From a virus, in IMG/VR virus record IMGVR_UViG_3300027976_000033: a stretch of 64,000 bases of DNA; one strand, given 5' to 3'. Under the pieces are notes generated by a model that saw nothing but the letters and a program-made list of their open reading frames with translations, ran no database searches and was not told the origin of the DNA. Positions 2,603 to 53,680 of this stretch are shown here, in pieces (positions within the stretch are counted from its first letter, which is position 1; each line of letters starts with the position of its first letter). The translations under genes and the position numbers were made by a program.

Positions 2603-2768
2603 ATGTTGTGACAATCCTCTTAAGGACGGTGAAGAAGCTATTTTGAAACTTGGCACTGCGGATGGTCCAGTTAAAATGAAAATATGCGCAGATTGTGAGA
2701 GATTCTTAGAAACGGCAATAAGTGCGATGAAGGATATTGACATTGATAATGATAAATTCTCCGAATAG
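2592..2768 (+). CDS. small zinc-ribbon protein (two CxxC pairs)
   Basis: 58-aa ORF MNCECCDNP...ICADCERF; below the ORF-track length cutoff. Confidence 0.35.
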   Translation: MNCECCDNPLKDGEEAILKLGTADGPVKMKICADCERFLETAISAMKDIDIDNDKFSE

Positions 2769-3216
2769 TATTGATGCGGAACATCATGATTATACGGTCT
2801 TCTTAAGTGGTTCTCTATCAATAAACGATACGAGTATCTATTGGAGAAGAAAGCTAATAGCATGTCTTGGTCCTATAGATCACGATGTAGCATTTTTAAA
2901 TCCTCATAGAGACGATTTGATTGAAGATCCAACTTGTCAATACTATATTGAACATATAGAGTGGGTAATGAAATGTCTCAACACAGCTGACCAGATGGTA
3001 TTTTATTTTGATCCTAAAGTTGAAACTCCCGTTTCGATGATGGAACTTGGTGCGATTGCAAGCAATAGAAATGTGATCATATGTTGTCCAGATAAGTTCT
3101 GGAAAAAGACTATAGTGAATGTCATATGTAACGAATTTGATGTTCCCATATTTAAAACTATAGAAGAAACTGCAGGATTTTTAAAGAAAAGAATATTAGA
3201 GGATATTGAATCATGA
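2749..3216 (+). CDS. nucleoside 2-deoxyribosyltransferase-like (Rossmann-like) protein, putative
   Basis: VFLSGS...W...NPH pattern typical of the deoxyribosyltransferase/DUF1937-like fold; first ATG at 2749. Confidence 0.3.
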   Translation: MINSPNSIDAEHHDYTVFLSGSLSINDTSIYWRRKLIACLGPIDHDVAFLNPHRDDLIEDPTCQYYIEHIEWVMKCLNTADQMVFYFDPKVETPVSMMELGAIASNRNVIICCPDKFWKKTIVNVICNEFDVPIFKTIEETAGFLKKRILEDIES

Positions 3217-4767: not shown

Positions 4768-4951
4768 GGATGTTTCTTCATGGAAATCAAATCATATGAC
4801 TTGCCAACGCGGTCCGATGGGGCATATGCTATAGAAACTAAATATTGCGAGCTTCTAACTCGTCAAAGGGCTGGTGAAAACCTTGCAGAAGAACAGAAGG
4901 ATTGGATGGACTCGGCTAACAGTTGGCTATCGATATTGTAAGGAATTTGAT

Positions 4952-5251
4952 ATGATTGAGTATAAAGTTATAGTACATGTTAATGGTGATAAGTATTGGT
5001 ACCTTGATGGTAAGCTCCATCGTGAAGATGGTCCCGCAGTTGAATATGCTAATGGCAACAAGTATTGGCTTCTTAATGGTAAGCAACATCGTGAAGCGGG
5101 ACCAGCAATCGAATATGCCAATGGTTATAAGTATTGGTATCTTAATGGTGTAGAAGTTACTGAAGACAAAGTCATGAATCCTGGCAAAGAACTTACAGTT
5201 GCTGAAATTAGTAAGCTTCTAGGTTATGAAGTAAAAATCATCAAGGGTTAA
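4952..5251 (+). CDS. MORN-variant repeat protein, paralog 1 of 4
   Basis: MIEYKV start as in the other paralogs; three about 23-aa repeats KYWYLNGK-HREDGPA-EYANG; conserved tail VMNPGKELTVAEISKLLGYEVKIIKG. Confidence 0.6.
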   Translation: MIEYKVIVHVNGDKYWYLDGKLHREDGPAVEYANGNKYWLLNGKQHREAGPAIEYANGYKYWYLNGVEVTEDKVMNPGKELTVAEISKLLGYEVKIIKG

Positions 5252-6600: not shown

Positions 6601-7196
6601 GTAAACAATTATCAACTGAATGGCATAAAATGTGTCATGATATTTTACAGTTACATGTTAATGGCCAACCAGAAGTTGGTTGGCAAAAACTATTTGATGG
6701 AAATCCATTCGCTTCATCGTTCAAAGTGAAGCTGCGATATGAAGATAAAATCTATAAACTACCTTACAGATTACGTATTGATAGAAAAGAAGAAACCGTA
6801 GAAGTCTTTGTCCCACTAACAAAAGAACAAGATGAGCTTAATCGATTGATACGTGCAAATAGATATAAAAATCATGATTATGATTTTCCATTGCATAAAT
6901 ACGATGCAAATAAATTTAATCTAACATACGATCAAATAGTTAATGATGTAGAATTTGCTTTAGTAAATATTGGAAATTTCAACAAATATATCGACGATTT
7001 TAAAGTTGGTTGCTTTGCAAAATTTAGTGGACAACGAGATAAAAAATCTTGGCGAAAGATTTTATCTATTGATTGGCAATTTCAAACAGCCCATGGTCAT
7101 AAATATTCAGCTCCAGTTGATGATGTAAAATTTGATGAGAGACATTCATCGGTCAATAGTATTTCAACTCTAATAGAGGTTCATACAAATGACTAA
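6597..7196 (+). CDS. hypothetical protein
   Basis: ORF with overlapping stop/start. Confidence 0.5.
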   Translation: MSKQLSTEWHKMCHDILQLHVNGQPEVGWQKLFDGNPFASSFKVKLRYEDKIYKLPYRLRIDRKEETVEVFVPLTKEQDELNRLIRANRYKNHDYDFPLHKYDANKFNLTYDQIVNDVEFALVNIGNFNKYIDDFKVGCFAKFSGQRDKKSWRKILSIDWQFQTAHGHKYSAPVDDVKFDERHSSVNSISTLIEVHTND

Positions 7197-7743
7197 TAAG
7201 CCAATAGTTTATATTGATATGGATGGAGTTTTAGCTGATCTTGATGGTGGTGTCTTTGATTGTTTTGGTGAATATCCAAGTGAAATGTCTGCAGAATCAA
7301 GTAAACATTTTTATAGAGAAATCTTACCAGCGTACACCAAGCTTAACATGTTTGAGTTACAGCCAACATTGAAAGAATCTCAAATATTAGTGTTAGCATT
7401 GAATATGCTTAAGAAGGAAGGTAAAGTAAATTTAGCAATATGTACGAGTACTGGACATTTTTACAGACCTTTATCTGAAGTTAGACATCAAAAAAGCAAA
7501 TTTATAGAACAACACTTCACATCATTAAAAGATATTCCATTCATAACAACATCATCTGGTATTGAAAAATCTTTCATGGCACACAAAAGAGCATTTTTGA
7601 TAGATGATCATCACAAAAACATAACCAGATTTATTGAAGCTGGTGGTTCTGGCTATATCTATGATGCTGATGATGCAAAATGTGTAACTAAAACGATTAA
7701 TGCAATAAATTTGTGGTTAGATCGAATATCACTGTATAAATAG
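7189..7743 (+). CDS. 5'(3')-deoxyribonucleotidase (HAD superfamily, NT5C-like)
   Basis: N-terminal IVYIDMDGVLADL is the HAD motif I DxDG(V/T)L of NT5C-type deoxynucleotidases. Confidence 0.65.
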   Translation: MTNKPIVYIDMDGVLADLDGGVFDCFGEYPSEMSAESSKHFYREILPAYTKLNMFELQPTLKESQILVLALNMLKKEGKVNLAICTSTGHFYRPLSEVRHQKSKFIEQHFTSLKDIPFITTSSGIEKSFMAHKRAFLIDDHHKNITRFIEAGGSGYIYDADDAKCVTKTINAINLWLDRISLYK

Positions 7744-7834: not shown

Positions 7835-8317
7835 ATGAATAAGTTAATTTCTCTAATGGCTGCCGCATTACTTTTTGCAGTACCATCAATTGCATCTGCA
7901 AATGAATTTTCTGGTTTTAGAATTGGTGTAACTGCCGGTCTTGATGACGTAACAGTTGCTCCAGATCGTACCGATGTTACATACGGAGCTGAAGTTGGAT
8001 ATGACGTTAACATTAATGATACTCCAGTTTATCTAGGTGTTGAAGCAACACTTGATAATGTGTTTGATAGACGTGATGTAGGTGCATCTGCACGCCTTGG
8101 TGTACAGGTTGCTAGCGATACATTGCTCTATGGTAAAGTTGGATATGCTAACTATAAAGACGTTTTCTCTCGTGAACTTGATGGTCTCCGCGTCGGTGGT
8201 GGTGCTGAACTTCATCTATCCGAAAATGTCTACGGGAAAGTAGAATATCGTTATACCGACTTTCAAGCTGGTGTTGGAAAGCACGGCGGGTTGATTGGTC
8301 TTGGTTATCGCTTTTAA
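7835..8317 (+). CDS. outer-membrane beta-barrel protein (OmpX/Ail/Lom-like) with signal peptide
   Basis: cleavable signal peptide MNKLISLMAAALLFAVPSIASA; alternating amphipathic strands; C-terminal LGYRF aromatic terminus typical of OMP beta-barrels. Confidence 0.55.
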   Translation: MNKLISLMAAALLFAVPSIASANEFSGFRIGVTAGLDDVTVAPDRTDVTYGAEVGYDVNINDTPVYLGVEATLDNVFDRRDVGASARLGVQVASDTLLYGKVGYANYKDVFSRELDGLRVGGGAELHLSENVYGKVEYRYTDFQAGVGKHGGLIGLGYRF

Positions 8318-8462: not shown

Positions 8463-8762
8463 ATGATCGAATATAAAGTAGAAGTCCATGAGAATGGCGA
8501 CAAGCATTGGTACCTTAATGGTAAGAGACATCGTGAAGATGGACCAGCTATCGAATATGCTGATTTGGACAAACATTGGTACCTTAATGGTAAGAAGCAT
8601 CGTGAAGATGGACCAGCAATCGAACTTGCTAGTGGTACAAGGCTATGGTTCCTTAATGGTGTATTAGTTAATGAAGATAAAGTCATGAATCCTGGCAAGG
8701 AACTTACGGTTGCTGAAGTATCAAAGCTTCTAGGTTATGAAGTGAAAATAGTTAAGGGTTAA
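8463..8762 (+). CDS. MORN-variant repeat protein, paralog 2
   Basis: same repeat and C-terminal tail as the 4952 gene. Confidence 0.65.
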   Translation: MIEYKVEVHENGDKHWYLNGKRHREDGPAIEYADLDKHWYLNGKKHREDGPAIELASGTRLWFLNGVLVNEDKVMNPGKELTVAEVSKLLGYEVKIVKG

Positions 8763-8787
8763 CATTCTTTTCGAAATAGTATATAAG
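8759..8787 (+). promoter_or_regulatory. early promoter variant (TTAACA-N17-TATAAG)
   Basis: ttaacattcttttcgaaatagtatataag. Confidence 0.5.
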
Positions 8788-8815
8788 AAATATATAATAA
8801 ATATGGAGAAACATT

Positions 8816-9130
8816 ATGCAAATCAAAGTTTATCATACCGGTCTCGCAGTTGCATCCATTCAGATTTCACACACAAATGATATCATGGCTGCATTAGAAT
8901 ATGCATTTTTTCGTACTCAGAACATTCATGGTAGTTGGTCCCGCGGAGAATTCTTCGAACTCGGTCAAGAAAATTGCGACTATAGTGCTGATATTAATGT
9001 CTTGGCTCCACTCCATGAAGCCGATGGTCATATTTACGGTCTCAGATCATCGATGGTCGGTGACACGTTTGTCGTAAATGACGAAATGGGATATAGTGTA
9101 GCAAGCATGGGATTTGAGGAAATATTATGA
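8816..9130 (+). CDS. hypothetical protein
   Basis: ORF with GGAGAA RBS. Confidence 0.5.
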   Translation: MQIKVYHTGLAVASIQISHTNDIMAALEYAFFRTQNIHGSWSRGEFFELGQENCDYSADINVLAPLHEADGHIYGLRSSMVGDTFVVNDEMGYSVASMGFEEIL

Positions 9131-10407
9131 AACCGACAATTATCACTTCAGAACCAGTTCATGGTTCACACGCTAGAAAGAATTTGAGCATGGAATATGA
9201 ATTTCCACTAATCATCAATATCAATGATGTGCTTCCAGCAATCGAAGGTCGCGACGAATTTAATGTCTCTGTGAAAGAAGGCTATACAGTCATCAATTAC
9301 AATGTGATGTTTGAAGACACATTCCCACCAATTAAAGTTGCTGGCGGAAGTCCAAAAATGCGTGCCGAAAGAGCTTTGCATAATGCTCTTCGTCGTGAGT
9401 GCCGCGGCATCATTTTTGATACTGTGACTGGTGATATTTTGCGTAGACCATATCACAAATTTTTCAATGTGAATGAACGAGATGAAACTCAAGATCATAT
9501 TGTTGATATGTCTGTCGGACATAGTATTCTTGAAAAGCTCGATGGTTCTATGATTGCTCCATTTATTGTTAATGAAAATATGATTTGGGGCACCAAAATG
9601 GGCGCTACAGATGTCGCAAAACCAGTTGAAGATTTTGTGAAGAACAATCCACATTATGCAGAATTTGCTGAGACATTGATCAAAAAATATGCTCTAACTC
9701 CAATCTTTGAATGGTGCTCTCGTAAACAGCGCATCGTTATTGATCACCCAGAAGATATGCTGATCTTGACTGGAATTAGAAACAGATTCAACGGCGATTA
9801 TGTTCTACATCGTCATCTTCATGAATACGTTCGTGATAAAGATATTCCAATTGTTAAAGCATTTAAACCACAGACTGACATGAAAGAATTCATCAATTAT
9901 GTTGTCGATCTGGAGGAAACTGAGGGCTTTGTAGTTAGATTTAATAGTGGTCATATGGTCAAACTAAAATGTCACTGGTATATCAATCTGCATAAGGCTA
10001 AAGAAGCTATTTTGCAAGATCGCAATATTGTTCAACTTATCATTGATAATTCTTTGGATGATATCAAAGCTCATCTTTCACCTGAAGACCGCGTAAAAAT
10101 TGAACAATTTGAAACCGATTTTAATAATGCGATAATAAAACAGTATAGATATATTATCGCAGTACTCTATAGTAATGCGCAGAAAAAAATAGACAGAAAA
10201 ACTTTTGCATTAAATCATGCTCAAAATGTTGATCGATATGCTCGTGGGATAGTATTCAAAAACTTTGAATATCGACCAGATATAGTAACCCCGAAAATGA
10301 TTCGTGATGATGTTCTTAATACCATTCGCAACAATCTTACGAAAACTGTTAAGTATGAAGAAATTCGAGATGCTTGGTTTTCAGATGTTAAATATAACGC
10401 GGAGTAG
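9127..10407 (+). CDS. rnlA: RNA ligase 1 (T4 gp63/RnlA-like)
   Basis: RECRGIIFD, nucleotidyltransferase motif I KLDGS, EGFVV and WYINLH align along the length of T4 Rnl1; extra about 50-aa N-terminal extension carrying the EPVHGSHAR motif. Confidence 0.9.
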   Translation: MKPTIITSEPVHGSHARKNLSMEYEFPLIININDVLPAIEGRDEFNVSVKEGYTVINYNVMFEDTFPPIKVAGGSPKMRAERALHNALRRECRGIIFDTVTGDILRRPYHKFFNVNERDETQDHIVDMSVGHSILEKLDGSMIAPFIVNENMIWGTKMGATDVAKPVEDFVKNNPHYAEFAETLIKKYALTPIFEWCSRKQRIVIDHPEDMLILTGIRNRFNGDYVLHRHLHEYVRDKDIPIVKAFKPQTDMKEFINYVVDLEETEGFVVRFNSGHMVKLKCHWYINLHKAKEAILQDRNIVQLIIDNSLDDIKAHLSPEDRVKIEQFETDFNNAIIKQYRYIIAVLYSNAQKKIDRKTFALNHAQNVDRYARGIVFKNFEYRPDIVTPKMIRDDVLNTIRNNLTKTVKYEEIRDAWFSDVKYNAE

Positions 10408-10411
10408 ACTA

Positions 10412-10690
10412 ATGGATCATCTGATATTAGTATTGCCTTTAATGTTATTGATATTCGCATTGCTCAGCCAATATAAGTATCTTCAAACGAGGCGAAGAAT
10501 TCGATTTGATGCATATGTTAGGAAGCTCGATTTAGAATTTCATAGGGTCGGTGGTGAGAGTTGGGTTCTTGGACGAGTCGTGAAAACTAATAAGATAAAT
10601 AGCTTGGAATCTATTCACAACTTTGAAAAGACTAAAATTTGGAATTATGATTTTGCATCAATGGTAGTATTGGAGAAAAGAAATGACTGA
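10412..10690 (+). CDS. small membrane protein, hypothetical
   Basis: ATG with GGAG RBS; hydrophobic N-terminus. Confidence 0.4.
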   Translation: MDHLILVLPLMLLIFALLSQYKYLQTRRRIRFDAYVRKLDLEFHRVGGESWVLGRVVKTNKINSLESIHNFEKTKIWNYDFASMVVLEKRND

Positions 10691-11216
10691 CCCTAAACCT
10701 ATATGTTACATCCTGATCGGTCCTCCTGCTGCTGGCAAGTCCACGTGGATTGCAGAAAATTGGATGAATGAATACACACGTCATATCGTTGTCAGTTCTG
10801 ATAATGAAATTGAACGCCATGCCAAAAGTGTTGGCAAGACTTATAATGATGTCTTTGCGTCACATATCAAAAAGGCAACAAAAGTTGCAATGGCTGACGC
10901 ACAAATGGCTGCTGATCAGGGATATAATGTAGTGATTGATAGAACCAATATGACTATTGGAGCTAGGAAAAAGTTCATTGATATCTTTAAAGACACACAT
11001 ATTATTATTGGATATGATTTTGGAACACCAGATAACATTGTTGAACGCTTGCTTTCTAGACCAGGAAAAGATATTCCAATGCACATTGTTCGTAATATGA
11101 TAGAATCATATGAAGCTCCAACATTGGAAGAAGGATTCGATGCTGTTTATGATAACGATAGTGCGATCGATACTTTGAAAATTGTAAATGATTTAAAAAT
11201 ACATGAAGGGAATTAA
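10683..11216 (+). CDS. polynucleotide 5'-kinase (T4 Pnk kinase-domain-like P-loop kinase), no HAD phosphatase domain
   Basis: P-loop GPPAAGKSTW, VVIDRTNMT (T4 VIISDTNLN) and C-terminal RLLSRPGKDIPMHIVRNM (T4 KRNSKRGTKAVPIDVLRSM). Confidence 0.7.
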   Translation: MTDPKPICYILIGPPAAGKSTWIAENWMNEYTRHIVVSSDNEIERHAKSVGKTYNDVFASHIKKATKVAMADAQMAADQGYNVVIDRTNMTIGARKKFIDIFKDTHIIIGYDFGTPDNIVERLLSRPGKDIPMHIVRNMIESYEAPTLEEGFDAVYDNDSAIDTLKIVNDLKIHEGN

Positions 11217-11218
11217 TT

Positions 11219-11587
11219 ATGATCGAATATAAAGTTAGAGTTTATGAGAATGGTACAAAGTATTGGTATCTTAATGGTAAACGTCATCGTGAAGATGGAC
11301 CAGCAATCGAATATGCCGATGGTAACAAGTATTGGTATCTTAATGATAAACTTCATCGTGAAGATGGTCCAGCAGTCGAATATGCCGATGGTAACAAGTT
11401 TTGGTATCTTAATGGTAAGTGTCATCGTGAAGATGGTCCAGCTATGGAATATGCTGATGGTGATAAGTACTGGTACATTAATGATCTGAAAGTTACAGAA
11501 GCTGACGTCATGAATCGTAACAGAGAACTTACAGTTGCTGAAGTATCAAAGTTTCTAGGATACGATGTAAAAATCGTTAAGGGTTGA
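11219..11587 (+). CDS. MORN-variant repeat protein, paralog 3 (four repeats)
   Basis: same repeat and tail. Confidence 0.65.
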   Translation: MIEYKVRVYENGTKYWYLNGKRHREDGPAIEYADGNKYWYLNDKLHREDGPAVEYADGNKFWYLNGKCHREDGPAMEYADGDKYWYINDLKVTEADVMNRNRELTVAEVSKFLGYDVKIVKG

Positions 11588-11613
11588 CATTCTTTTCGTT
11601 TTGGTATATAAGA
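11585..11613 (+). promoter_or_regulatory. early promoter (TTGACA-N17-TATAAG)
   Basis: gttgacattcttttcgttttggtatataag; identical to the 13349 copy. Confidence 0.6.
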
Positions 11614-11975
11614 GTCATAACAACAAAGGAATGTTATGATGGTAACTAAAGATGATGCAATGGAATTTATTGTAGAACTTGAAGATATGATGAAAGTTCT
11701 CGAATTGCGCCTTGATGAAAAAGTATCAACTGCAATGTCTGATCGTTATTTTGCTATCAAAAAATATATCCGAAATTCAGAAAACATAATCGTAAAGGCA
11801 AAAACGTGAAATTCAAAATTGTAAACCCAAAACATTCATGGCATTTTGCTTACGCACATCAGACTTTTGAAGTAGCTGAAGGGTATGATCCAGACCACCC
11901 ACAAGTGCCGGCAATGACGTCGTTCGGCCGGACTTGGTTTGATATCGATGTTATAGAATTTATAGAGGACTAAAA

Positions 11976-12632
11976 ATGGGAAAATTTGTAAACAGATTCA
12001 TTATCTCCGATACGCATTTCGGACACACCAATTCTTGGGAAAAGTTCAAGAATGCTGATGGCACACCACTGCGCCCATTTACTTCTACTGAAGAAATGGA
12101 TGAAGCGATGGTTGAACGTTGGAATGCGAAGGTTAAACCTGGAGATACTGTGTATCATCTGGGTGATGTTGTTATCAATGCTAAATCACTGCATCATGTA
12201 TCTAGGCTGAATGGTCGTAAGATTCTGATTCGTGGTAACCATGATATCTTCAAGGATAAACAATACCGTGAAGTTGGCTTTGAACAACTGCATGGTTGCA
12301 GAGTTTTTGTTGATAAATTCATTATGACTCATATTCCACTGCATCCAGATAGTGTAACAGATCGCTTTCGTGTAAATGTCCACGGGCATCTGCATGGCAA
12401 TGAGGTTATGACAAATGGTGTGGTTTTCGATAAGGATGACCAATCTGGAGGTAATCCCTACAAAAAGATTACATATCCTGATCCTCGTTATCTATGTGTA
12501 TCGGTAGAACATACCAACTATGAACCACTGCATTTTGATGAAGTGGAAGCACGAATTCAGCAGCGCTGGAAAACTGTCGGCTATAATCCACCAAGTGGTG
12601 CTGGATGGGGTAATGGAAGCGGAGCTAGTTAA
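11976..12632 (+). CDS. calcineurin-like metallophosphoesterase
   Basis: motifs DTHFGH, GDVV, GNHD, THIPLH, HGHLHG. Confidence 0.75.
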   Translation: MGKFVNRFIISDTHFGHTNSWEKFKNADGTPLRPFTSTEEMDEAMVERWNAKVKPGDTVYHLGDVVINAKSLHHVSRLNGRKILIRGNHDIFKDKQYREVGFEQLHGCRVFVDKFIMTHIPLHPDSVTDRFRVNVHGHLHGNEVMTNGVVFDKDDQSGGNPYKKITYPDPRYLCVSVEHTNYEPLHFDEVEARIQQRWKTVGYNPPSGAGWGNGSGAS

Positions 12633-13652: not shown

Positions 13653-13709
13653 GAATTTCTATCTATTGGCGCCAGCTACTTCAGGTTGCTAACGAAAAGG
13701 CAGCTCGCA

Positions 13710-14006
13710 ATGCCGTGTAATAAAAGAAAACGGAGATTTCTGGCGCGGATGATGAAAGCTCAAAATGGAAAATGTGTTTATTGTTTTACACCCATGGTCT
13801 TACAACTTTCCGGAATATCTCGTCTATCAGATAATACAGCTACATTAGATCATATCATCCCAAGATCTAAAGGCGGGAAATATGATATGTCACACAATAC
13901 TGTATGCGCTTGCCATAAGTGTAACAATCAGCGTGGCGATATGTGTATTACCAAATTTTTGATTCAACAAAGGAATGTTCATGAAAGTCTATGTAACATA
14001 TTATGA
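13710..14006 (+). CDS. free-standing HNH endonuclease
   Basis: CVYC ... LDHIIPRSKGG ... HN ... CHKCN: HNH motif with zinc-ligand cysteines. Confidence 0.65.
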   Translation: MPCNKRKRRFLARMMKAQNGKCVYCFTPMVLQLSGISRLSDNTATLDHIIPRSKGGKYDMSHNTVCACHKCNNQRGDMCITKFLIQQRNVHESLCNIL

Positions 14007-14190
14007 TTACGGTCCGCATGAGGGCTTGAGTGCACCTCTTGGGTGCACTCTTCTCTTGAAGAAGCTATGAACTCATTTGATATTTCCCCTGAACGAATTA
14101 TGAAGCGCGATTGCGGGTGGGTTCATTTTACAGATGAAAATTTATGGATTTTTGATAACTCAGAATCAATTACTGAATTCGAAGTATAAG

Positions 14191-14219
14191 TTGACACCAC
14201 TTTAAAAATAGTATATAAG
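14191..14219 (+). promoter_or_regulatory. early promoter (TTGACA-N17-TATAAG)
   Basis: gttgacaccactttaaaaatagtatataag. Confidence 0.6.
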
Positions 14220-14242
14220 AATACTATAAAGAGGAAAACGTT

Positions 14243-14698
14243 ATGAAAAATGGTGAAATGCTTGGAAAAATGCTAGTTATGGCAGCGGTTGCTCATGATG
14301 GACAATTCGATAAAGGTGGAAAACCTTACATTCTACATTGTCTCCAGGTCATGCATAATCTCAAAAGCGATGACGAAGAGCTACAGTGTATTGCACTTGG
14401 CCACGACATTATTGAAGATACAAAGACTACATGGCATGATCTTGAAGAAGCTGGCTTTTCCAAACGTGTCGTAAGTGGAATTCGTGCCATGACAAAGCAA
14501 AATGGTTATTCCTATGATGAATACAAACTGCAAGTGTTTGCAAACAAAGACGCAATGAAAGTCAAAATGGCTGATCTTATGCATAACAGTGATATCCGCA
14601 GATTGAAGGGTGTTACAGAAAAGGACATCAATCGGATGGCTAAGTACCACCGCTTCTATCTCGAAATACAAACAAAATTGGATAAAGACATTGAGTAA
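14243..14698 (+). CDS. small alarmone hydrolase: SpoT/RelA-type HD-domain (p)ppGpp hydrolase
   Basis: AHDGQFDKGGKPYILHCLQV ... ALGHDIIEDT matches the HxGQ-R-sGePY-H and HD..EDT signature of SpoT hydrolase domains; 151 aa single domain. Confidence 0.8.
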   Translation: MKNGEMLGKMLVMAAVAHDGQFDKGGKPYILHCLQVMHNLKSDDEELQCIALGHDIIEDTKTTWHDLEEAGFSKRVVSGIRAMTKQNGYSYDEYKLQVFANKDAMKVKMADLMHNSDIRRLKGVTEKDINRMAKYHRFYLEIQTKLDKDIE

Positions 14699-14911: not shown

Positions 14912-15709
14912 ATGAAAATACAATTTGTAAGTGATCTTCATCTAGAATTTGAAAGTCAATTCAGAATTAAGAATGCCGGCAGTGATCTTCTGATCCTCGG
15001 TGGAGACATATGTACTGCTATGCCATTTTCAAGATCTGAAGATTCACCATATTATGCTTACGGTCAACGATTCAAAGAGTTCTTTGAATACTGTTCTAAT
15101 GAATTTGAACACGTTCTTTATATCATGGGCAACCATGAGTCATATCAATACATTCAAAATAAGACTGAGCAAACTCTTCGTGAAACTCTAGCACATCTGC
15201 CAAATATTAATATACTAGAAAACGAATATGTTGAAGTTGGAGATGTTAGATTTCTAGGAACTACGCTCTGGACTGATATGAATAAGAATGATCCTATTAC
15301 TATGGGTCTTATAAAGGATAAGATGAATGATTTTCGAGTCGTTCAAGTAAATCACGATGGTGTTTATCGTAAATTTCAACCATATGACGCATCTCGGATG
15401 CACGACGCGGCACTGAAATTTATTGATAAAAACACTGTCGATCATGATAAGTGCTTTGTACTTTCTCATCATGCACCAAGTACATTGTCTATCAGCAAGA
15501 GATTTGCAAATGATTTTGTGATGAATGGTGGATATGCTTCCGATCTAAGTGAATTTATACTAGATCGTCCACAAATCAAAATGTGGACTCATGGTCACGT
15601 TCATCATAACAATGATTATGAACTCGGCTCATGCCGGATCATGTCTAATCCTCGTGGATATGATGATGAAAATCCTGGTTTTATGGTTGATAAAATCGTA
15701 GAATTATGA
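14912..15709 (+). CDS. calcineurin-like metallophosphoesterase (second copy, different family member)
   Basis: VSDLHLE, GGDI, GNHE, HGHVHH. Confidence 0.7.
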   Translation: MKIQFVSDLHLEFESQFRIKNAGSDLLILGGDICTAMPFSRSEDSPYYAYGQRFKEFFEYCSNEFEHVLYIMGNHESYQYIQNKTEQTLRETLAHLPNINILENEYVEVGDVRFLGTTLWTDMNKNDPITMGLIKDKMNDFRVVQVNHDGVYRKFQPYDASRMHDAALKFIDKNTVDHDKCFVLSHHAPSTLSISKRFANDFVMNGGYASDLSEFILDRPQIKMWTHGHVHHNNDYELGSCRIMSNPRGYDDENPGFMVDKIVEL

Positions 15710-15723
15710 TCTCAATGTATATA

Positions 15724-15757
15724 TAGTATGCCTAATGCACATTGGTTAGGCATACTA
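15724..15757 (+). promoter_or_regulatory. perfect 12-bp-stem hairpin in the hsp20 5' region (no U-tract)
   Basis: tagtatgcctaa-N10-ttaggcatacta. Confidence 0.5.
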
Positions 15758-15783
15758 TAAATCTTGCTTTTACAGGAGATCAT

Positions 15784-17050: not shown

Positions 17051-19534
17051 ATGTTTTACACCAACGTCTGGCTTCACCGCGGCAAAATTTATACTAAAGG
17101 AGTAAGAGAGGGAAAGCCATTTAGAGAAACATCTGCATATTCACCATATCTGTTTGTCAATTCACCTGTCGAGACACAGTACAAAACTTTGGATGGAAAA
17201 TATGTCGATAAGAAAAATTTCAATACAATCCGCGAGGCTAGAGATTTTGTTAAATCTTATAGTGATGTGTCGAATTTTCCAATCTATGGTCTGACACAAT
17301 ATCAGTATACTTACATCTTTGATAACTACAAGGGTATGATTGAATATGATCCTGAACTGATTTCTGTTGTTGGTCTCGACATCGAAAACTCTATGAAGAA
17401 TAGAGTCGATATCGCAACAGGTGTTACAACGACTCCAAATGAAATTACGGCGATAACACTTCGTAAAGGCATTCACAGATATACCTTTGGTGTTAAAGAA
17501 TTTACAGAACATCAAGACGATCTTACATACTATCATTGTAAAAATGAAAAAGATCTACTATTAAAATTCATTCAGGTTTGGAAGCTCTTAGACCCTGATG
17601 TAATTACTGGATGGAACGTAGAATTCTATGATATTCCATATCTCGTTAATAGAATTATCAGAGTTCTTGGTGAAAGACATGCTAAAGAACTTAGCCCATG
17701 GGGTAACCTGATCGCTTACGAAGTTATGATCAAAGGCAAACTCTGCCCATCATATCAATTGGCTGGTATCAGCGTATTGGACTATATGCAACTATACAAA
17801 AAGTTTACATACAAAAGTCGAGAAAAATATACACTAGCACATATATGTGAAGTCGAATTGGGTGAAACGAAGCTAGACTACACAGACTACATTAATCTCG
17901 ACGATTTGTATGAAAAAAATCCACAGAAATACATCGAATATAATATTCACGACGTTGATTTGATTTTTAAACTAGAAGACAAGCTTAAACTAATTGAATT
18001 AGTCTTCGCTCTTGCATATGATGCAAAAGTAAACTATAATGATACTCTTGCATCTGTGCGCCAGTGGGATGTGATGATACACAATTATCTACTGGAAGAT
18101 GATATAGTCATACCGAATAATAGAGATAGTGGCCTCGGTGGGCCTCTAGTGGGCGGATATGTTAAGGCTCCGCACGTTGGTATGCATAAGTGGGTAGTTT
18201 CATTCGATTTAAATTCACTATATCCACACCTTATCATGCAATACAATATTAGTCCAGAGACATTTGCTGGTCGAGTTAGTTCTTTTAATACTATAGACAA
18301 ACTACTTGAAAGAAAAATTATACGAGATGATGATCACTCGTGGGCTGCGAATGGATGTTATTATACGAAAGACAAGCAGGGATTTTTACCAGCTTTGATG
18401 GAAAAAATGTATGAGGACAGAAACAAATACAAGAGATTAATGTTTGATGTAAAACAGAAAAATCAAAAAAATCCAACATGGGAATTGCAGAAACTAATTG
18501 CTAAATTTAATAATCTACAGATGGCTAAGAAAATTCAGCTGAACAGTGCTTATGGTGCGCTTGGAAATAAATATTTCAGATGGTATGATATTAACCATGC
18601 TGAAGCTATTACGATGTCTGGACAGTTATCTATTCGTTGGATTGCAGATAGACTTAATGAATATCTCAATAAGCTTATAGGTACTGAGAATGTAGATTTT
18701 GTTATTGCGAGTGATACTGACTCTGTCTATATTACACTCGATAGACTAGTTCAAAAGGTTGGAATATCCGATAAAAGCGATTTAGAAATAACTAGAATTC
18801 TTGATAAGTTCTGTTCTGAGAAAATGGAAGTACAAATTGAAAAGTTCTATTCTGAATTAGCTATTATGATGAATGCTAAATCTCAGAAAATGAAAATGGC
18901 CAGAGAGTGTATTGCTAATAAAGCAATATGGACAGCCAAGAAAAGATATATTCTTAATGTTTACAATCTCGAGGGTGTTGAGTACGCAATACCAGAATTA
19001 AAAATGTCCGGTATTGAAGCTATTAAATCATCAACTCCACAAGTATGTCGAACAGCAATTAAGCATTCGATATCACTCATTATGTCTGCTGAAGAAAAAG
19101 ATCTACAGCAATATGTTTCTAAATTTAGAACTGAATTTGAAAACAAAAACTTTGCTGAAATATCATTTCCAAGGGGAATTAGTGATATAGCCAAATGGAA
19201 TACACGCACTGGATTTCTAAAGAAAACTCCGATACATGTAAAAGGTTCAATTTTGTTCAATAGATTGATAGAAGAGCACGACATTCGTAATAAATATGAA
19301 GAGATAGGAAGCGGCGACAAAATAAGATTTTGTTATCTCAAGGCTCCGAACCCACATTTTTCTAATGTACTATCGTGTCCGGATGAACTTCCAGAGGAAT
19401 TCAATATACAAAAATATATCAATTACGATTTGCAATTTACTAAATCGTTTCTTGACCCACTGTTAGCTATCCTTAAATCGATAGGCTGGGAAGCAGAGCA
19501 CACGTCAAACCTTGATAGTTTTTTTGGAGATTAA
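17051..19534 (+). CDS. 43: DNA polymerase gp43 (family B)
   Basis: exonuclease motif VVGLDIE, motif B KIQLNSAYGALGN, motif C VIASDTDSVYI; 827 aa. Confidence 0.95.
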   Translation: MFYTNVWLHRGKIYTKGVREGKPFRETSAYSPYLFVNSPVETQYKTLDGKYVDKKNFNTIREARDFVKSYSDVSNFPIYGLTQYQYTYIFDNYKGMIEYDPELISVVGLDIENSMKNRVDIATGVTTTPNEITAITLRKGIHRYTFGVKEFTEHQDDLTYYHCKNEKDLLLKFIQVWKLLDPDVITGWNVEFYDIPYLVNRIIRVLGERHAKELSPWGNLIAYEVMIKGKLCPSYQLAGISVLDYMQLYKKFTYKSREKYTLAHICEVELGETKLDYTDYINLDDLYEKNPQKYIEYNIHDVDLIFKLEDKLKLIELVFALAYDAKVNYNDTLASVRQWDVMIHNYLLEDDIVIPNNRDSGLGGPLVGGYVKAPHVGMHKWVVSFDLNSLYPHLIMQYNISPETFAGRVSSFNTIDKLLERKIIRDDDHSWAANGCYYTKDKQGFLPALMEKMYEDRNKYKRLMFDVKQKNQKNPTWELQKLIAKFNNLQMAKKIQLNSAYGALGNKYFRWYDINHAEAITMSGQLSIRWIADRLNEYLNKLIGTENVDFVIASDTDSVYITLDRLVQKVGISDKSDLEITRILDKFCSEKMEVQIEKFYSELAIMMNAKSQKMKMARECIANKAIWTAKKRYILNVYNLEGVEYAIPELKMSGIEAIKSSTPQVCRTAIKHSISLIMSAEEKDLQQYVSKFRTEFENKNFAEISFPRGISDIAKWNTRTGFLKKTPIHVKGSILFNRLIEEHDIRNKYEEIGSGDKIRFCYLKAPNPHFSNVLSCPDELPEEFNIQKYINYDLQFTKSFLDPLLAILKSIGWEAEHTSNLDSFFGD

Positions 19535-19943: not shown

Positions 19944-21014
19944 ATGTCATTACTAGAAAAAATTAAAAAGAATTCTACAATTAAAGAAAGTTCGATATTG
20001 TCGACATCAAAATTCTTTAATGAAAAGGATATGATCCAAACACAAATCCCGGCAATTAATGTTGCATACTCTGGTGATCTAGATGGCGGACTTACTCCTG
20101 GACTTACTCAGTGGGCTGGGCCATCTCGGCACTTTAAGACTTTGTTCTCTCTCATTTCAGCCAAAGCATATATGGACAAATACCCAGATGCCGTATTGTT
20201 ATTTTATGACTCAGAATTTGGTACACCAAAATCATATTTTGAAGCTGTTGGTATTGACATGGAAAGAGTTATCCACACACCACTGACAAACATCGAACAG
20301 ATGAAGTTTGATGTTATGACTCAATTGGAAGACATTATCCGTGGAGAACATCTGATAGTTCTCATCGATTCTATCGGCAACATGGCATCTAAGAAAGAAG
20401 TCGACGACGCTCTTGACGGTAAATCTGTTGCTGACATGACTCGTGCTAAGCAGCTTAAATCGTTCTTCAGAATGGTTACACCACATCTAAATCTCAAAGA
20501 TATTCCAATGATCGTCGTAAATCACGTTTACATGACTATGGAAATGTTCAGTAAACCCATCGTGTCAGGCGGAACGGGAGGAATGTACTCCTCGGATAAC
20601 GTGTTCATTATCGGTCGTCAACAGGATAAAGACGGTAAAGATCTTATGGGATATAACTTCATTATCAATGTTGAAAAATCTCGCTACGTTAAAGAAAAAT
20701 CTAAGATTCCAATTACAGTGAAATTCAAGGGTGGTATTTCTAAATGGTCTGGTTTGTTAGATATGGCTCTCGAATCTGGTCACGTTACGAAACCGAAGAA
20801 CGGTAGATATTCAAAAGTAGATCAAGAGACTGGTGAATTTGATGAAAAGGGCATAAAGATTCAAGCTACTGACACTGCTGATTTTTGGAAGCCAATTCTT
20901 GCGGATCAGAAATTTAAAGACTTTGTTAAAGCGAAATACTCAGTATCTCATGGTGCTTTGATTGAAGATGATTCTGAAGAAGTTTATGATAATTTGGAGG
21001 ACGAAAACGAGTAA
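19944..21014 (+). CDS. uvsX: recombinase UvsX (RecA/Rad51 family)
   Basis: near-colinear with T4 UvsX (SKFFNEKD, YPDAVLLFYDSEFG, VSDMTRAK, GGTGGMYS, NVEKSRYVKEKSK). Confidence 0.95.
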   Translation: MSLLEKIKKNSTIKESSILSTSKFFNEKDMIQTQIPAINVAYSGDLDGGLTPGLTQWAGPSRHFKTLFSLISAKAYMDKYPDAVLLFYDSEFGTPKSYFEAVGIDMERVIHTPLTNIEQMKFDVMTQLEDIIRGEHLIVLIDSIGNMASKKEVDDALDGKSVADMTRAKQLKSFFRMVTPHLNLKDIPMIVVNHVYMTMEMFSKPIVSGGTGGMYSSDNVFIIGRQQDKDGKDLMGYNFIINVEKSRYVKEKSKIPITVKFKGGISKWSGLLDMALESGHVTKPKNGRYSKVDQETGEFDEKGIKIQATDTADFWKPILADQKFKDFVKAKYSVSHGALIEDDSEEVYDNLEDENE

Positions 21015-21060: not shown

Positions 21061-21690
21061 ATGAGCATTGAAAATATTATATTAAGTAGTTTGTTATATA
21101 ATGAAGATTACGTCAGAAAGACGATAGCATTTTTAAAGCCAGAATATTTTCATAACGATGCTGATAAAGTTCTTTATAAATTAATAGAACACTATTTCCA
21201 GAAGTACAATGCCTCTCCAACAAAGGAAGCATTGCTTCTGGACATAGATAAAGTATCTTTACCGGAACACGTTTTTAAAGAGTGTGTCGAAAAGACCAAG
21301 ACTTTAGAATATACCGAACAACAGATGGTTTGGCTTACAGATACTACAGAGAAATTCTGTCAAGACAAAGCTCTCTACAATGCGATCATGGATTCAATCA
21401 AAATTATCGATGACGATGATGACAAAAATCCATTATCTAAGGGTTCTATTCCACAAATTCTGAGTGACGCTTTAGCAGTATCGTTTGATACTGATATCGG
21501 TCATGATTATTTAGAAAATTCTGAAGAGAGATTCGAGTATTATCATTTAGCTGAAGCGAAAATACCATTCGACATTGAGCATTTTAATAATATCACTAAG
21601 GGTGGTGTTTCTAGAAAAACACTTACAATCATACTTGCTGGTTGTGTTCATCCATCAACAAAAATTAAAGTGCGAATTAGAAAAGTGTAA
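21061..21690 (+). CDS. 41: replicative helicase gp41, fragment 1: N-extein (21061-21642) plus 15-aa split-intein N half
   Basis: DnaB/gp41 N-terminal domain; ends ...KTLTIILAG|CVHPSTKIKVRIRKV* inside the Walker A loop (T4 LLAG-VNVGKS). Confidence 0.85.
   Translation: MSIENIILSSLLYNEDYVRKTIAFLKPEYFHNDADKVLYKLIEHYFQKYNASPTKEALLLDIDKVSLPEHVFKECVEKTKTLEYTEQQMVWLTDTTEKFCQDKALYNAIMDSIKIIDDDDDKNPLSKGSIPQILSDALAVSFDTDIGHDYLENSEERFEYYHLAEAKIPFDIEHFNNITKGGVSRKTLTIILAGCVHPSTKIKVRIRKV
21643..21687 (+). other. atypical split-intein N half (IntN, 15 aa)
   Basis: Cys-initiated 15-residue peptide between the extein and an in-frame stop; complemented by a 128-aa IntC downstream. Confidence 0.65.
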
Positions 21691-22309
21691 ATCCGCGCTG
21701 GTATCCAATATCAATATACGATTGCAACAAATCAGGCTTTATTCTAGTTCTATGTTTTCCATTAGTTACACATATGAAGCCAGTAAGAGCTCTGCCGCCC
21801 TTAGCACAAATAATTTTTTTTACATCTGGATCGAAAAAGGCTCCTATTTTATTTTCTCTTTGTGTTTTAGAGCCAGCAGTTCCACCCTTTGAACACATGT
21901 TTTTTCTAAAGACTGGATCGAAAGTTCCTACTTTATTTTTGGATTGTGTCACCGCCGCCTTTCTGGCGCTAGCTCTGATTGATTCTTTATTATTTTTATA
22001 TTTATCAGAATGAAATCCGATTTTGTTTTTATGACAGAACTTACCAGTGATAATTCGCTGTTTAGTTGAAAGCTTCGCACCCAACATGTGCATAGATCTT
22101 AAATCATTTGGATTTTTATATATTTTCCACAATAAGAAATGAGCAATTATGTGTTCTCTAATATTTAGATATGTTAAATTTTCTTGTAAATCGCCGCCGC
22201 CCATGTGTTTTGGAATTATGTGATGAGCATGTAATCCGCTGGCGTAGCCATATTTTTCTTTTAATGATTTTCTATTTTCACACAATGATGAATAGATTAT
22301 ATCATACAT
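21677..22309 (-). CDS. HNH homing endonuclease (free-standing, opposite strand, between the split-intein halves)
   Basis: GLHAHHIIPKHMGGGD ... NLTYLNIREHIIAH HNH motif. Confidence 0.75.
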   Translation of the reverse strand: MYDIIYSSLCENRKSLKEKYGYASGLHAHHIIPKHMGGGDLQENLTYLNIREHIIAHFLLWKIYKNPNDLRSMHMLGAKLSTKQRIITGKFCHKNKIGFHSDKYKNNKESIRASARKAAVTQSKNKVGTFDPVFRKNMCSKGGTAGSKTQRENKIGAFFDPDVKKIICAKGGRALTGFICVTNGKHRTRIKPDLLQSYIDIGYQRGFTLF

Positions 22310-22323
22310 GTTTTAATCTTTCG

Positions 22324-22331
22324 TATAAATA
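22324..22331 (+). promoter_or_regulatory. T4-type late promoter octamer TATAAATA upstream of gp41 fragment 2
   Basis: exact TATAAATA 46 nt upstream of ATG 22377. Confidence 0.4.
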
Positions 22332-22376
22332 TTATGCCAGTGCCGGCTAGTAATATTTATTATTTTGGAGTTTTTA

Positions 22377-22760
22377 ATGAATAATTGGGTAGAAAAAGAA
22401 ATAGAAATAGGTGCCGTAGATGACTTGCTTAAAGAGGGTTATGAAGTAGAGGTATATTCTCCAGATGGTTGGGTTGGCATTAATTTTTTTGTTGATAAGG
22501 GTTCATATGAAGAATATATCATTACAACCGCAAATGGATTAGAAGTCAAATGTAACGCGGATCATTTATTTAAGTCTGTTGATGATGAATGGATTACTGC
22601 ACAAGAGTTAGAATATATGCAAGATCCTGTAGAATTAGTAACGATACATGGACCATCATTAGCATTTACCATTAAGACAGATAATATAATTCCAATTGTA
22701 GACATAAATGTTAATCATAAAAATAAGCGATATTATACAAATGGTATAGAATCACACAAT
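22377..22760 (+). other. atypical split-intein C half (IntC, 128 aa, contains block B)
   Basis: contains EVKCNADHLF (block B) and terminal GIESHN followed by +1 Thr. Confidence 0.65.
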
Positions 22761-23558
22761 ACTGGCGCGGGCAAAAGTTTGGCAATGTGCCACATGGCAG
22801 CTGGCAATCTCATGGATAATAAGAGTGTCCTATATATCACGCTCGAAATGGCTGAAGAAAAGATCGCAGAAAGAATTGATGCTAATCTTCTAAATATTAC
22901 CATGGACGATTTGGATAAAACTCCAAAAGCCTACTACGATAAAATGATTGCTAAGCTAAAGTCCAGAACTATGGGCAAGCTTATCATTAAAGAATATCCA
23001 ACTTCAACAGCCCATGCAAATCACTTTCGTCATCTTCTTAATGAATTAAAAATTAAGAAGAATTTTATACCAGACATCATCTATATCGATTACATCAATC
23101 TATGCGGATCAGTCAGAATTAAGGCCGGTGCTAATGCTAACTCGTACACGATGATTAAGTCGATTGCCGAAGAACTTCGTGGACTTGCCGTTGAACACAA
23201 CGTTCCTATCATTAGTGCTACACAGGTTACTCGAGCTGGATATGGTTCAAGCGATATTGAAATTACCGATACATCTGAATGTATCTTCCAGGATGAAATG
23301 ATTGAACTGCGTGATGGTAGTTCTAAAATGATTAAAGATATTGTAGTTGGAGATCAAATTATATCTAATGATCAATATAAAACGGTTCATATGGTTCATC
23401 ATTCGAAACTCAAAGACTGTTATAAGATAAAAACATCAGCTGGCAAAGAAATAATTGTAAGCAAAGATCATGTATTTCCAACAAAGCGTGGCAGAATATC
23501 AATCGAAACTGGTTTGAGTGTTGGTGATAATCTTAATAGTAGGAACCGTGATGAGTAA
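22377..23558 (+). CDS. 41: gp41 fragment 2: 128-aa IntC (22377-22760) plus central extein (22761-23279) plus IntN of second split intein (23280-23555)
   Basis: ...NGIESHN|TGAGKSLAMCHMA completes the Walker A motif; DnaB RecA-like core; ends ...DTSE|CIFQDEM...NRDE*. Confidence 0.85.
   Translation: MNNWVEKEIEIGAVDDLLKEGYEVEVYSPDGWVGINFFVDKGSYEEYIITTANGLEVKCNADHLFKSVDDEWITAQELEYMQDPVELVTIHGPSLAFTIKTDNIIPIVDINVNHKNKRYYTNGIESHNTGAGKSLAMCHMAAGNLMDNKSVLYITLEMAEEKIAERIDANLLNITMDDLDKTPKAYYDKMIAKLKSRTMGKLIIKEYPTSTAHANHFRHLLNELKIKKNFIPDIIYIDYINLCGSVRIKAGANANSYTMIKSIAEELRGLAVEHNVPIISATQVTRAGYGSSDIEITDTSECIFQDEMIELRDGSSKMIKDIVVGDQIISNDQYKTVHMVHHSKLKDCYKIKTSAGKEIIVSKDHVFPTKRGRISIETGLSVGDNLNSRNRDE
23280..23555 (+). 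other. split-intein N half (IntN, 92 aa), gp41-1-like
   Basis: CIFQDEMIELRDGS ... KDHVFPT (block B) ... stop; same pattern as described gp41-type split IntN. Confidence 0.8.
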
Positions 23559-39391: not shown

Positions 39392-39659
39392 TAGATTACA
39401 TATAGTGTGCGATTGTAACACTTTAGAACATCAAATTGTATTTGATTATGATGATGACGAATATTATCTCATGGTTCATTTATCTAAAAAGTCATTTTTT
39501 AGAAGATTCATCCATGCAATCAAATATATAATAGGCTATCAATCACAAAATGGCGCATTTGATGAGGTTCTTATAGGAACATCAGATTTAGATAGAATAA
39601 TAGAGCACATGAAAAAATATAAAAATAAGGACCAACATGTCACAAATACACGTAATTAA
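39354..39659 (+). CDS. hypothetical protein
   Basis: ORF. Confidence 0.4.
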   Translation: MIMNKMPIRMQNNRLHIVCDCNTLEHQIVFDYDDDEYYLMVHLSKKSFFRRFIHAIKYIIGYQSQNGAFDEVLIGTSDLDRIIEHMKKYKNKDQHVTNTRN

Positions 39660-53678: not shown

Positions 53679-53680
53679 TT

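Follow-up and report, generated by a model that had tools for sequence, protein, structure and literature searches.

IMG/VR virus record IMGVR_UViG_3300027976_000033 is considered here over a stretch of 64,000 nucleotides (the 64-kb window), a low-GC (about 35%) segment of a T4-like phage in which an RNA ligase, a polynucleotide kinase and a metallophosphoesterase (MPE) are encoded just upstream of the replication genes. An earlier note on this DNA had flagged the interval 9127-12632 as an RNA-repair module built from separate genes, namely an Rnl1 ligase, a Pnk-type kinase lacking a HAD phosphatase domain and an MPE located 0.8 kb downstream, and had listed a second MPE and a 2H-fold gene as further parts. 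All five genes were found where it had placed them, and domain searches confirmed the separate Rnl1, the HAD-less kinase and the MPE, the gap between the kinase stop codon and the MPE start being 760 bp (Table 1). On balance, the available data tilt towards the view that the cluster is an early-expressed set of separate genes for the repair of RNA breaks, most likely in tRNA.

Ligase and kinase of the cluster

The ligase matches the Pfam families RNA_lig_T4_1 (E 2.9e-28) and T4_Rnl1_C (PF20819; 1.7e-6, 28.8 bits against a cut-off of 27), and its best solved relative is T4 Rnl1 (2c5u, 4e-25), in an alignment that reaches residue 370 and displays the ECRG, KFFN, KxDG, EG and KxK motifs. Within it, K137 of EKLDGS, E195 of FEW, E266/G267 of EGFV and K279/K281 of KLK align to T4 K99, E159, E227/G228 and K240/K242, respectively, and K137, E195, E266, G267, K279 and K281 are conserved in at least 90% of 41 ligases. 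The protein fails the equivalog-level test of TIGR02308 (139 bits versus a cut-off of 242) and shares about 37-39% identity with the Rnl1 of alphaproteobacterial phages. As judged from its sequence, it is a divergent member of the T4 Rnl1 family that retains the C-terminal tRNA-specificity domain.

With regard to the kinase, the only Pfam domain detected in its 177 residues is AAA_33 (3.9e-16), no HAD domain being present, and it carries a P-loop GPPAAGKST (G13-K19-S20-T21), Asp40, D86-x-T88 and the lid arginines R122/R126; the catalytic residues are invariant or nearly so among 88 family members. The claim that this gene has Pnk motifs and lacks a HAD domain is thereby borne out. A profile search against Pnkp families, as the earlier note had proposed, returned the kinase region of bacterial Pnkp in NCBIfam (residues 11-165) at 4.4e-8, below the family cut-off. 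Only tRNA and polynucleotide kinases (PSTK, bacterial Pnkp and PNK-3'Pase) are found among the curated models that match, all of them below their family cut-offs. Among solved structures, the kinase domain of mammalian PNKP is the best match (5e-6), and that of Clostridium thermocellum Pnkp (CthPnkp) is also recovered (2e-4), while a hidden Markov model (HMM) built from 81 kinase relatives matches T4 PseT at 2.9e-9.

Because all matches to proven polynucleotide kinases fall below the family cut-offs, the kinase is assigned to a distinct, stand-alone subfamily of Pnk-type polynucleotide 5'-kinases. At E<=1e-30 this clade is represented by 1,583 clusters of 50% identity, the representatives being nearly all stand-alone proteins of 150-225 aa. 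When homologues were examined for an MPE, HD or HAD domain fused to the kinase, the 111 matches were all stand-alone (148-225 aa), and so, with few exceptions, were the 150 top-ranking cluster representatives (148-225 aa); in one kinase match of 301 aa a second domain was not recognised. Since the homologues checked stand alone, the evidence from fusions is limited to HD (Campylobacter phage CP220) and HAD (T4). The roles of the ligase and the kinase in RNA repair are well supported.

The metallophosphoesterase

The MPE matches Metallophos_2 (8.7e-8) and phrog_547 (1e-49) and possesses all five motifs of its superfamily, D12-x-H14, G63-D64, G87-N88-H89-D90, H119 and G137-H138-x-H140, each conserved in at least 90% of 89 members, and an AlphaFold2 (AF2) model (pLDDT 81) shows the metallophosphoesterase fold. 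When a profile of the family was compared with the PDB, a single real relative was obtained, Aquifex aeolicus aq_1665 (1xm7, 1e-23), a protein whose function is not known; the CthPnkp phosphatase, lambda phosphatase and Mre11 were not recovered by this search. Fold comparison likewise groups the model with aq_1665 (value 17.3), followed by LpxH (10.5), YfcE (9.0), lambda phosphatase (8.9), a Pseudomonas putida nuclease MPE (8.9) and, at rank 30, the CthPnkp phosphatase 4j6o (7.1), and does not discriminate between substrates. The nearest curated family is PdeM, at a sub-threshold 1.5e-9. On the strength of these profile, fold and curated-family comparisons, the protein is an intact binuclear enzyme of the aq_1665 subfamily and not of the bacterial Pnkp/lambda-phosphatase type.

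This has consequences for the earlier proposal that the cluster reproduces the domain combination of bacterial Pnkp/Hen1 systems, which did not hold. The MPE belongs by profile and fold with aq_1665 and failed the test for the lambda-phosphatase clade, the ligase is of the Rnl1 type, and no open reading frame (ORF) of the window matches Hen1 or the PNKP_ligase proteins of phages XacN1 and RAS14 at E<=0.1.

Linkage of kinase and metallophosphoesterase in viral loci

To describe the genomic surroundings of the kinase, 80 viral loci (here numbered with the prefix L, as are all fetched loci) were anchored on relatives that are 36-46% identical to it, and their neighbouring genes were clustered without prior labels, the DSP, ligase, vWA and HD families being named afterwards from Pfam matches. 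The family of the window's MPE proved to be the most frequent neighbour, present within 3 kb of the kinase in 60 of the 80 loci and within 1 kb in 48, often at a gap of 4-22 bp or overlapping. Within the same 3 kb, DSP/PTP-like cysteine phosphatases occur in 56 loci, Rnl1-family ligases in 29, DUF2828/DUF7788 vWA proteins in 20 and HD_4 hydrolases in 15, and 69/80 loci hold a phosphoesterase of any kind (MPE, DSP, HD, HAD or MPE2). MPE and kinase always share a strand; the MPE directly follows the kinase in 21 loci and directly precedes it in 15, and gene orders are varied, with KIN-MPE-HD-LIG, MPE-LIG-F86-KIN and DSP-MPE-HD-KIN-LIG among many. In view of the persistence of this linkage through reshuffled gene order, a functional relation between kinase and MPE is suggested; a linkage that survives such extensive rearrangement argues for function.

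The ligase is part of the same picture in several phages. In L092 and L094, whose MPEs are 77-78% identical to that of the window, ligase, kinase and MPE are contiguous (-10 and +20 bp); the three genes lie close together in L109-L110 and L129-L136 and are syntenic in L004 and L010. Conversely, in loci anchored on 54 close relatives of the MPE, the kinase is found in 21 and an HD_4 gene beside the MPE in 13. Together with the count of 60/80, the contiguous loci uphold the proposed linked RNA-repair module of Rnl1, kinase and separate MPE.

The question arises whether the three genes could simply be neighbours by chance in a dense early region, with no functional relation. In the window they belong to two different units, each headed by a promoter-like motif, and unrelated small ORFs lie in between; among contigs with a close MPE relative the genes are anything between 20 bp and 4.1 kb apart, as coincidental neighbours would allow. 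Against this, the linkage recurs in dozens of divergent loci and in varied orders, far above the roughly 0.2 loci in 80 expected by chance, our own rough estimate calculated as 3.6% of cultured phage records x about 6 kb / about 100 kb genome, and a chance arrangement is accordingly regarded as very improbable.

In the environmental phages of L011-L090 (for example L043 9968-13000, L018 and L083) the kinase resides in a larger, shuffled cluster which includes the MPE, an Rnl1-like ligase, HD_4, a DSP/PTP-like cysteine phosphatase (HCxxGxxRS), DUF2828/DUF7788 vWA proteins, an MCD-like protein and two small families (about 80 and 86 aa), of which the latter nearly always comes after the ligase. 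The DSP/PTP-like, DUF2828/DUF7788 vWA, MCD-like, about-80-aa and 86-aa families have no member in the window.

Other contexts of the kinase clade

Cultured phages illustrate the range of partners with which this kinase is associated. It abuts Rnl1 in DSS3P8, Cr30 and RHph_I1_18, and in the last of these, a Rhizobium phage, the order is CCA-adding enzyme, Thg1-like gene, Rnl1 and kinase. In Roseobacter phage DSS3P8 the kinase comes after Rnl1, and a stand-alone HAD phosphatase, gp099 (HAD_PNKP 2e-36), is encoded 2.9 kb upstream, the fetched 9-kb locus being devoid of an MPE; a HAD phosphatase gene is likewise found 214 bp upstream of the kinase in L063. In gp055 of Campylobacter phage CP220 an N-terminal HD domain is fused to a kinase of the clade, which corresponds to the HD-Pnk architecture, whereas Xanthomonas phage XacN1 and Stenotrophomonas phage RAS14 encode the kinase followed by Hen1 and a Pnkp-type ligase. 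Sinorhizobium phage phiN3 displays the order HD_4, five small genes, kinase, one gene and MPE, with Rnl1 65 kb away.

Taken together, every informative context of the kinase clade is one of RNA repair, with a phosphatase partner that can be exchanged. It is mainly for this reason that the MPE is read as the putative 3'-end-healing component. The suggestion of the earlier note that the end-healing toolkit had possibly been exchanged is in keeping with DSS3P8 and L063, in which the kinase has a separately encoded HAD phosphatase of the Pnkp type as its neighbour, as would fit a swap of the 3'-healing part.

A separate observation concerns XacN1 ORF197 (L147 6855-8069), whose sole match is the PNKP ligase domain despite its annotation as a metallophosphoesterase. 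Together with Hen1 and the kinase, which are encoded ahead of it, and an AlkB-like dioxygenase gene upstream, it makes up a split Pnkp/Hen1-type cluster.

The HD hydrolase and other candidate partners

A gene overlooked by the earlier note, located 3 kb downstream of the kinase, encodes an HD hydrolase most similar, among solved structures, to a (p)ppApp hydrolase (7smg, 5.4e-25, residues 5-140). It also matches phrog_990 (5e-57) and HD_4 (1e-5), the latter with 25.8 bits, slightly short of the 27.2-bit cut-off. In many phages, phiN3 and CcrColossus among them, homologues of the HD_4 type are situated beside the MPE or in kinase/MPE/ligase clusters. It has been reported that small alarmone hydrolases of this superfamily can remove the pyrophosphate which toxSAS toxins add to tRNA CCA ends, an activity likened by the authors to the 3'-phosphatase of T4 Pnk (bioRxiv 10.1101/2021.04.30.441581), and it is because these enzymes act on tRNA CCA ends that the HD gene is a plausible component of a cluster for repairing RNA ends. 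Its product is probably an accessory member, predicted to act as a 3'-(pyro)phosphatase on RNA or alarmones.

The two other enzymes assigned to the toolkit fared less well. The gene at 37123-37623 does encode a protein of 2H fold; it is, however, identified as Acb1, an anti-CBASS phosphodiesterase that acts on cyclic oligonucleotides, by PF23474 (1.2e-25) and PDB 7t26 (1.6e-9), with the HTT and HIT motifs aligned, and was rejected as an RNA end-healing part. The second MPE is present (Metallophos 1.9e-11) and belongs to a different family from the first, for which a solved relative was not found; its place in the toolkit is doubtful, given that this family is encountered within 3 kb of the kinase in 1/80 loci and within 6 kb in 2/80 (L077 and L041). 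The Acb1 gene adjoins GMP reductase/IMPDH-like and ThyX genes.

Further searches of the window addressed other possible sources of 3' healing and tRNA repair. No ORF matches the HAD domain of T4 Pnkp or DSS3P8 gp099, and genes for Rnl2, a CCA-adding enzyme or a Thg1-like protein were not found. A HAD-superfamily gene at 7189-7743, with a DMDGV motif and a weak match to NT5C (5'(3')-deoxyribonucleotidase), lies 1.4 kb upstream of the ligase unit; considered as the missing 3'-phosphatase, it was set aside, as it recurs in no other fetched locus.

Distribution of the metallophosphoesterase family and competing explanations

Several observations weigh against assigning the MPE to RNA repair. Its putative action on RNA 3' ends, while plausible, is deduced from gene linkage. 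Many of the 80 kinase loci come from related phages, so that clustering at 70% kinase identity leaves 16 clusters, 6 of them with the MPE, and no kinase-MPE fusion was seen among the kinase and MPE family matches listed. The MPE family is far broader than the kinase, with 1827 versus 64 cultured-phage records (the former counted at E<=1e-5 and representing 3.6% of cultured phage records) and thousands of aq_1665-like members in metagenomes. Bacterial members also differ from the window's MPE in not being linked to kinases or ligases, a kinase being near the MPE in none of 80 bacterial-genome loci and a ligase in one (L173), and no conserved partner was found among their neighbours, a CoaD-like gene, named by eye from its sequence, occurring in 10 loci. 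In viruses, about 22/54 close MPE relatives (about 40%) are accompanied by neither kinase nor ligase nor HD gene within the locus fetched, as exemplified by L006, a 153-kb contig in which the MPE adjoins gp45/44/62/regA and no ligase or kinase is present within 10 kb. In L173 (1484-6492), a contig from a Cellvibrionaceae metagenome-assembled genome, a fused T4-type Pnkp (kinase+HAD), Rnl1 and an aq_1665-family MPE lie within 5 kb, and the MPE adjoins Rnl1 although a complete fused Pnkp is present; it is therefore not merely a replacement for HAD. Finally, the window contains no tRNA genes and no Rfam family.

These data would also fit a scheme in which Rnl1 and the kinase constitute the repair pair and the MPE is a general phosphoesterase, acting on a nucleotide or cyclic-nucleotide signal or as a protein phosphatase, that happens to be encoded in a hyper-variable early region, with 3' healing left to HD_4, the NT5C-like HAD protein or a host enzyme. 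Besides the occurrence of the MPE in phages without the kinase and alone in bacteria, such a scheme draws on its repeated pairing with an alarmone-hydrolase-type HD protein (13/54), on the Ser/Thr phosphatase annotation of many cultured-phage homologues and on the diversity of the structural neighbours that follow aq_1665 (LpxH, YfcE, lambda phosphatase, ApaH-like). In addition, the HD domain of HD-Pnk from Runella slithyformis is a proven 2',3'-phosphoesterase (PMC6097658), and the capacity of small alarmone hydrolases to dephosphorylate tRNA 3' ends would equip the HD protein for the task. On the other hand, it is the MPE that ranks first among the kinase's neighbours, in a linkage that outlasts gene-order reshuffling, whereas HD_4 is found in only 15/80 kinase loci and the NT5C-like gene is confined to the window among the fetched loci. 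A general phosphoesterase is thus held to be possible, yet somewhat unlikely.

It could also be argued that the kinase and the MPE, perhaps with the HD enzyme, heal DNA ends in the manner of mammalian PNKP or of the bacterial PdeM cluster, and that Rnl1 is incidental. Mammalian PNKP, to which the kinase is closest among solved structures, is a DNA-repair enzyme; PdeM is a DNA-damage-response phosphoesterase, that is, a DNA-acting, ligase-associated nuclease, which also speaks against an RNA substrate for the MPE; according to a title cited in PMC6097658, HD-Pnk acts on DNA and RNA; and the position just upstream of the replication genes would suit such a function. However, the recurrent ligase partner is of the Rnl1 type with the T4 Rnl1 C-terminal domain, a DNA ligase is linked to the kinase in none of the 80 loci, and the kinase is met in RNA-specific contexts (Hen1, CCA-adding enzyme, Thg1-like, HAD_PNKP beside Rnl1), all of which renders DNA-end healing improbable. 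The reading of the cluster as an RNA-repair set in which the MPE supplies the 3' healing is retained below.

Transcription units and recombination around the cluster

A promoter-like motif, GTTGACA-N14-GTATATAAGA, occurs in 14 copies in the window (4107-62705), all on the plus strand, where 0.32 would be expected, and its spacer TTCTTTTCGAAATA is often identical among copies. Examples are those at 8403, 8758, 11583, 13348, 14190, 47253, 54045 and 62675, the first five of which lie in the region of the cluster, and the motif probably represents the early promoter class of the phage, as far as its sequence and distribution indicate. The copy at 8403 heads a MORN-like gene (8463-8762), and the units headed by the following four copies are listed in Table 1. 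That the same motif heads the ligase/kinase, MPE and HD units is counted as support for a joint repair cluster. As no terminator-like site was found between 11216 and 11976, read-through from the ligase/kinase unit into the MPE unit is plausible, while the unit with HD_4 and the second MPE is closed by a terminator-like hairpin at 15722-15759.

Table 1. Features of the repair cluster and its flanks in the window.
Feature	Position	Strand	Remarks
Promoter-like motif	8758..8797	+	Written GTTAACA-N14-GTATATAAGA for this copy; heads orf104, Rnl1, orf92, kinase and MORN-like gene, tightly packed/overlapping
orf104, small	8816..9130	+	Overlaps ligase start by 4 nt; co-transcribed; lineage-specific
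T4 Rnl1-family RNA ligase, 426 aa	9127..10407	+	Pfam, PDB, motif alignment
orf92, 92 aa, hydrophobic N-terminus	10412..10690	+	Between ligase and kinase; 8-nt overlap with the kinase start
Stand-alone Pnk-type P-loop polynucleotide 5'-kinase, 177 aa	10683..11216	+	AAA_33, PDB and HMM matches
MORN/DUF6745-like repeat gene	11219..11587	+	Last of ligase/kinase unit; DUF6745 6e-8
Promoter-like motif, exact match	11583..11622	+	Heads orf57, orf55, MPE and three small ORFs
aq_1665-family binuclear metallophosphoesterase, 218 aa	11976..12632	+	Candidate RNA 3'-healing enzyme
Promoter-like motif	13348	+	Heads orf82 and HNH endonuclease; strong hairpin at 14028
Promoter-like motif, exact match	14190..14229	+	Heads HD_4, orf101 and second MPE
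Aph1-like RelA/SpoT-type HD hydrolase (HD_4)	14243..14698	+	PDB 7smg, phrog_990
Second metallophosphoesterase, phrog_1649	14912..15709	+	Metallophos 1.9e-11; module membership doubtful

The small ORFs between the ligase, kinase and MPE genes are lineage-specific. For orf104, Pfam and PHROG searches gave no match, and its homologues among the fetched loci are confined to L010 and L129-L136, whereas a homologue of orf92 is found solely in L010, where a gene is called at the equivalent place. Four MORN/DUF6745-like paralogues (4859-5248, 8463-8762, 11219-11587 and 53675-54046), with the repeat YWYLNGK.HREDGPA and 64-79% DNA identity, are distributed over the window; they flank the ligase/kinase block, and several adjoin a copy of the motif.

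Nucleotide searches against cultured phages did not find a close DNA relative of the window; three metagenomic contigs, L008, L009 and L010, show 95-98% identity to it across the aligned parts. In L010 (3296-6626), kinase and MPE are separated by a 3.3-kb cassette, missing from the window, whose products are an Rnl2-family ligase of 347 aa and, with 350 aa, an AAA ATPase. Collinearity breaks at window positions 11483-11583, inside the MORN-like gene at the end of the ligase/kinase unit, and this location of the break suggests recombination between MORN-like paralogues. The gene is accordingly interpreted as a recombination junction and not as a conserved member of the module, and the breaking of the L010 cassette at these paralogues marks the region as an apparent hotspot for gain and loss of repair genes.

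A second discontinuity is observed at 13693-14230, where a 538-bp insertion with an HNH gene (13686-14006) and a hairpin (14028-14050) is missing from L008 and L010 and shortens the upstream gene to 82 aa, compared with 105 aa in relatives. It looks like a recent homing-endonuclease insertion.

Other features of the window

The replication genes comprise a family B DNA polymerase (17051-19534), UvsX (19944-21014), a gp41-type helicase and clamp-loader genes, and nucleotide metabolism is represented by ribonucleotide reductase and ThyX. Three genes of replication and nucleotide metabolism are each broken up into separate ORFs (regions 86-2363, 21061-23558 and 39637-42667), with signatures of intein halves at two of the three splits, in the gp44 clamp loader and the large subunit of ribonucleotide reductase. 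The gp44 halves are separated by a 285-aa ORF, and in the gp41 helicase the interruption is a 1.1-kb insertion which is missing from L008. These split genes resemble the 'fractured genes' with split inteins. In the early region, a gene at 2737-3216 is similar to nucleoside 2-deoxyribosyltransferases (PF15891, 2.7e-19), and the product of 7835-8317, the N-terminus of which resembles a signal peptide, is a beta-barrel protein of the outer membrane (OMP_b-brl, 8.7e-18); L004 has a comparable gene upstream of Rnl1.

Proposed pathway and relation to known systems

In the pathway proposed for the cluster, cleavage of RNA by a host ribonuclease would produce ends with a 2',3'-cyclic phosphate and a 5'-OH, respectively. 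The stand-alone kinase would then phosphorylate the 5'-OH, the MPE would open and remove the 2',3'-cyclic or 3' phosphate to give a 3'-OH, and the Rnl1-type ligase would seal the healed ends, with the HD hydrolase as a likely accessory 3'-(pyro)phosphatase. The family assignments, the intact catalytic motifs, the promoter type common to the units and the gene linkage conserved in many phages are observed; what the MPE and the HD enzyme act on, and which host nuclease is counteracted, we infer.

A modular RNA-repair 'syntax', in which phages combine ligase, kinase and an interchangeable phosphatase, was reportedly outlined by Burroughs and Aravind in 2016. Modular, exchangeable RNA-repair parts are already established, and the cluster extends this known theme and overturns nothing.

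The closest comparison is with Pnkp (PseT) and Rnl1 of T4, with which the cluster shares a ligase family, including catalytic motifs and C-terminal domain, a kinase homologous to the Pnkp kinase domain, a presumed heal-then-seal order and early expression. Unlike T4 Pnkp, the kinase of the window is a separate protein of 177 aa without the DxDxT (HAD) domain, and the candidate for 3' healing has the unrelated MPE fold. The bacterial Pnkp/Hen1 (Pnkp1-Rnl-Hen1) systems of Clostridium thermocellum and Capnocytophaga likewise pair a P-loop 5'-kinase and a binuclear metallophosphoesterase, the latter serving as the 2',3'-phosphatase, and 2',3'-cyclic phosphodiesterase activity has been described for the MPE domain of CthPnkp and for lambda phosphatase (PMC2190708, PMC3675462). 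The kinase of the window is also similar to that of CthPnkp and gives a match to the model for bacterial Pnkp; in contrast to those systems, the ligase is of the Rnl1 type, Hen1 is absent and the parts are separate genes. With HD-Pnk, as represented by CP220 gp055, the likeness lies in the C-terminal kinase, homologous to that of the window, and in an HD domain that provides 3' healing (PMC6097658), whereas the HD protein of the window is a separate gene of the RelA/SpoT type (HD_4, Aph1-like) and the HD domain of CP220 has no match there.

In the computational survey of Iyer et al. 2021 (PMC7824862), which cites Burroughs and Aravind, modules of ligase, kinase and interchangeable phosphatase are likewise predicted for phages, and calcineurin-like and HD domains are predicted to replace HAD occasionally in phage RNA repair, with jumbo phages as the setting. 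The frequent pairing of an aq_1665-family MPE with a stand-alone kinase clade is not described in that survey, nor are the DSP-PTPase, DUF2828/vWA and HD_4 neighbours of the kinase-MPE pair.

A more far-reaching proposal would be that the aq_1665-family MPE constitutes a new, widespread class of RNA 3'-end-healing enzymes, forming with the kinase a two-gene equivalent of Pnkp in many environmental phages, and that the whole cluster (ligase, kinase, MPE and HD) reverses both anticodon-nuclease cuts and the 3'-CCA pyrophosphorylation of toxSAS/CapRel-type toxins. In this full form the proposal is considered unlikely.

Implications for phage RNA repair

If the MPE does heal RNA 3' ends, the aq_1665-like family would gain its first activity, and a third unrelated fold, after HAD and HD, would serve as a phosphatase in phage tRNA repair, alongside the bacterial Pnkp-type MPE. 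Many environmental phages would thereby be marked as equipped against RNA-cleaving defences, and a compact three-gene set would become available for reconstitution. In this regard, the Aph1-like hydrolase offers a testable link between the repair of tRNA breaks and the reversal of tRNA pyrophosphorylation by toxSAS toxins.

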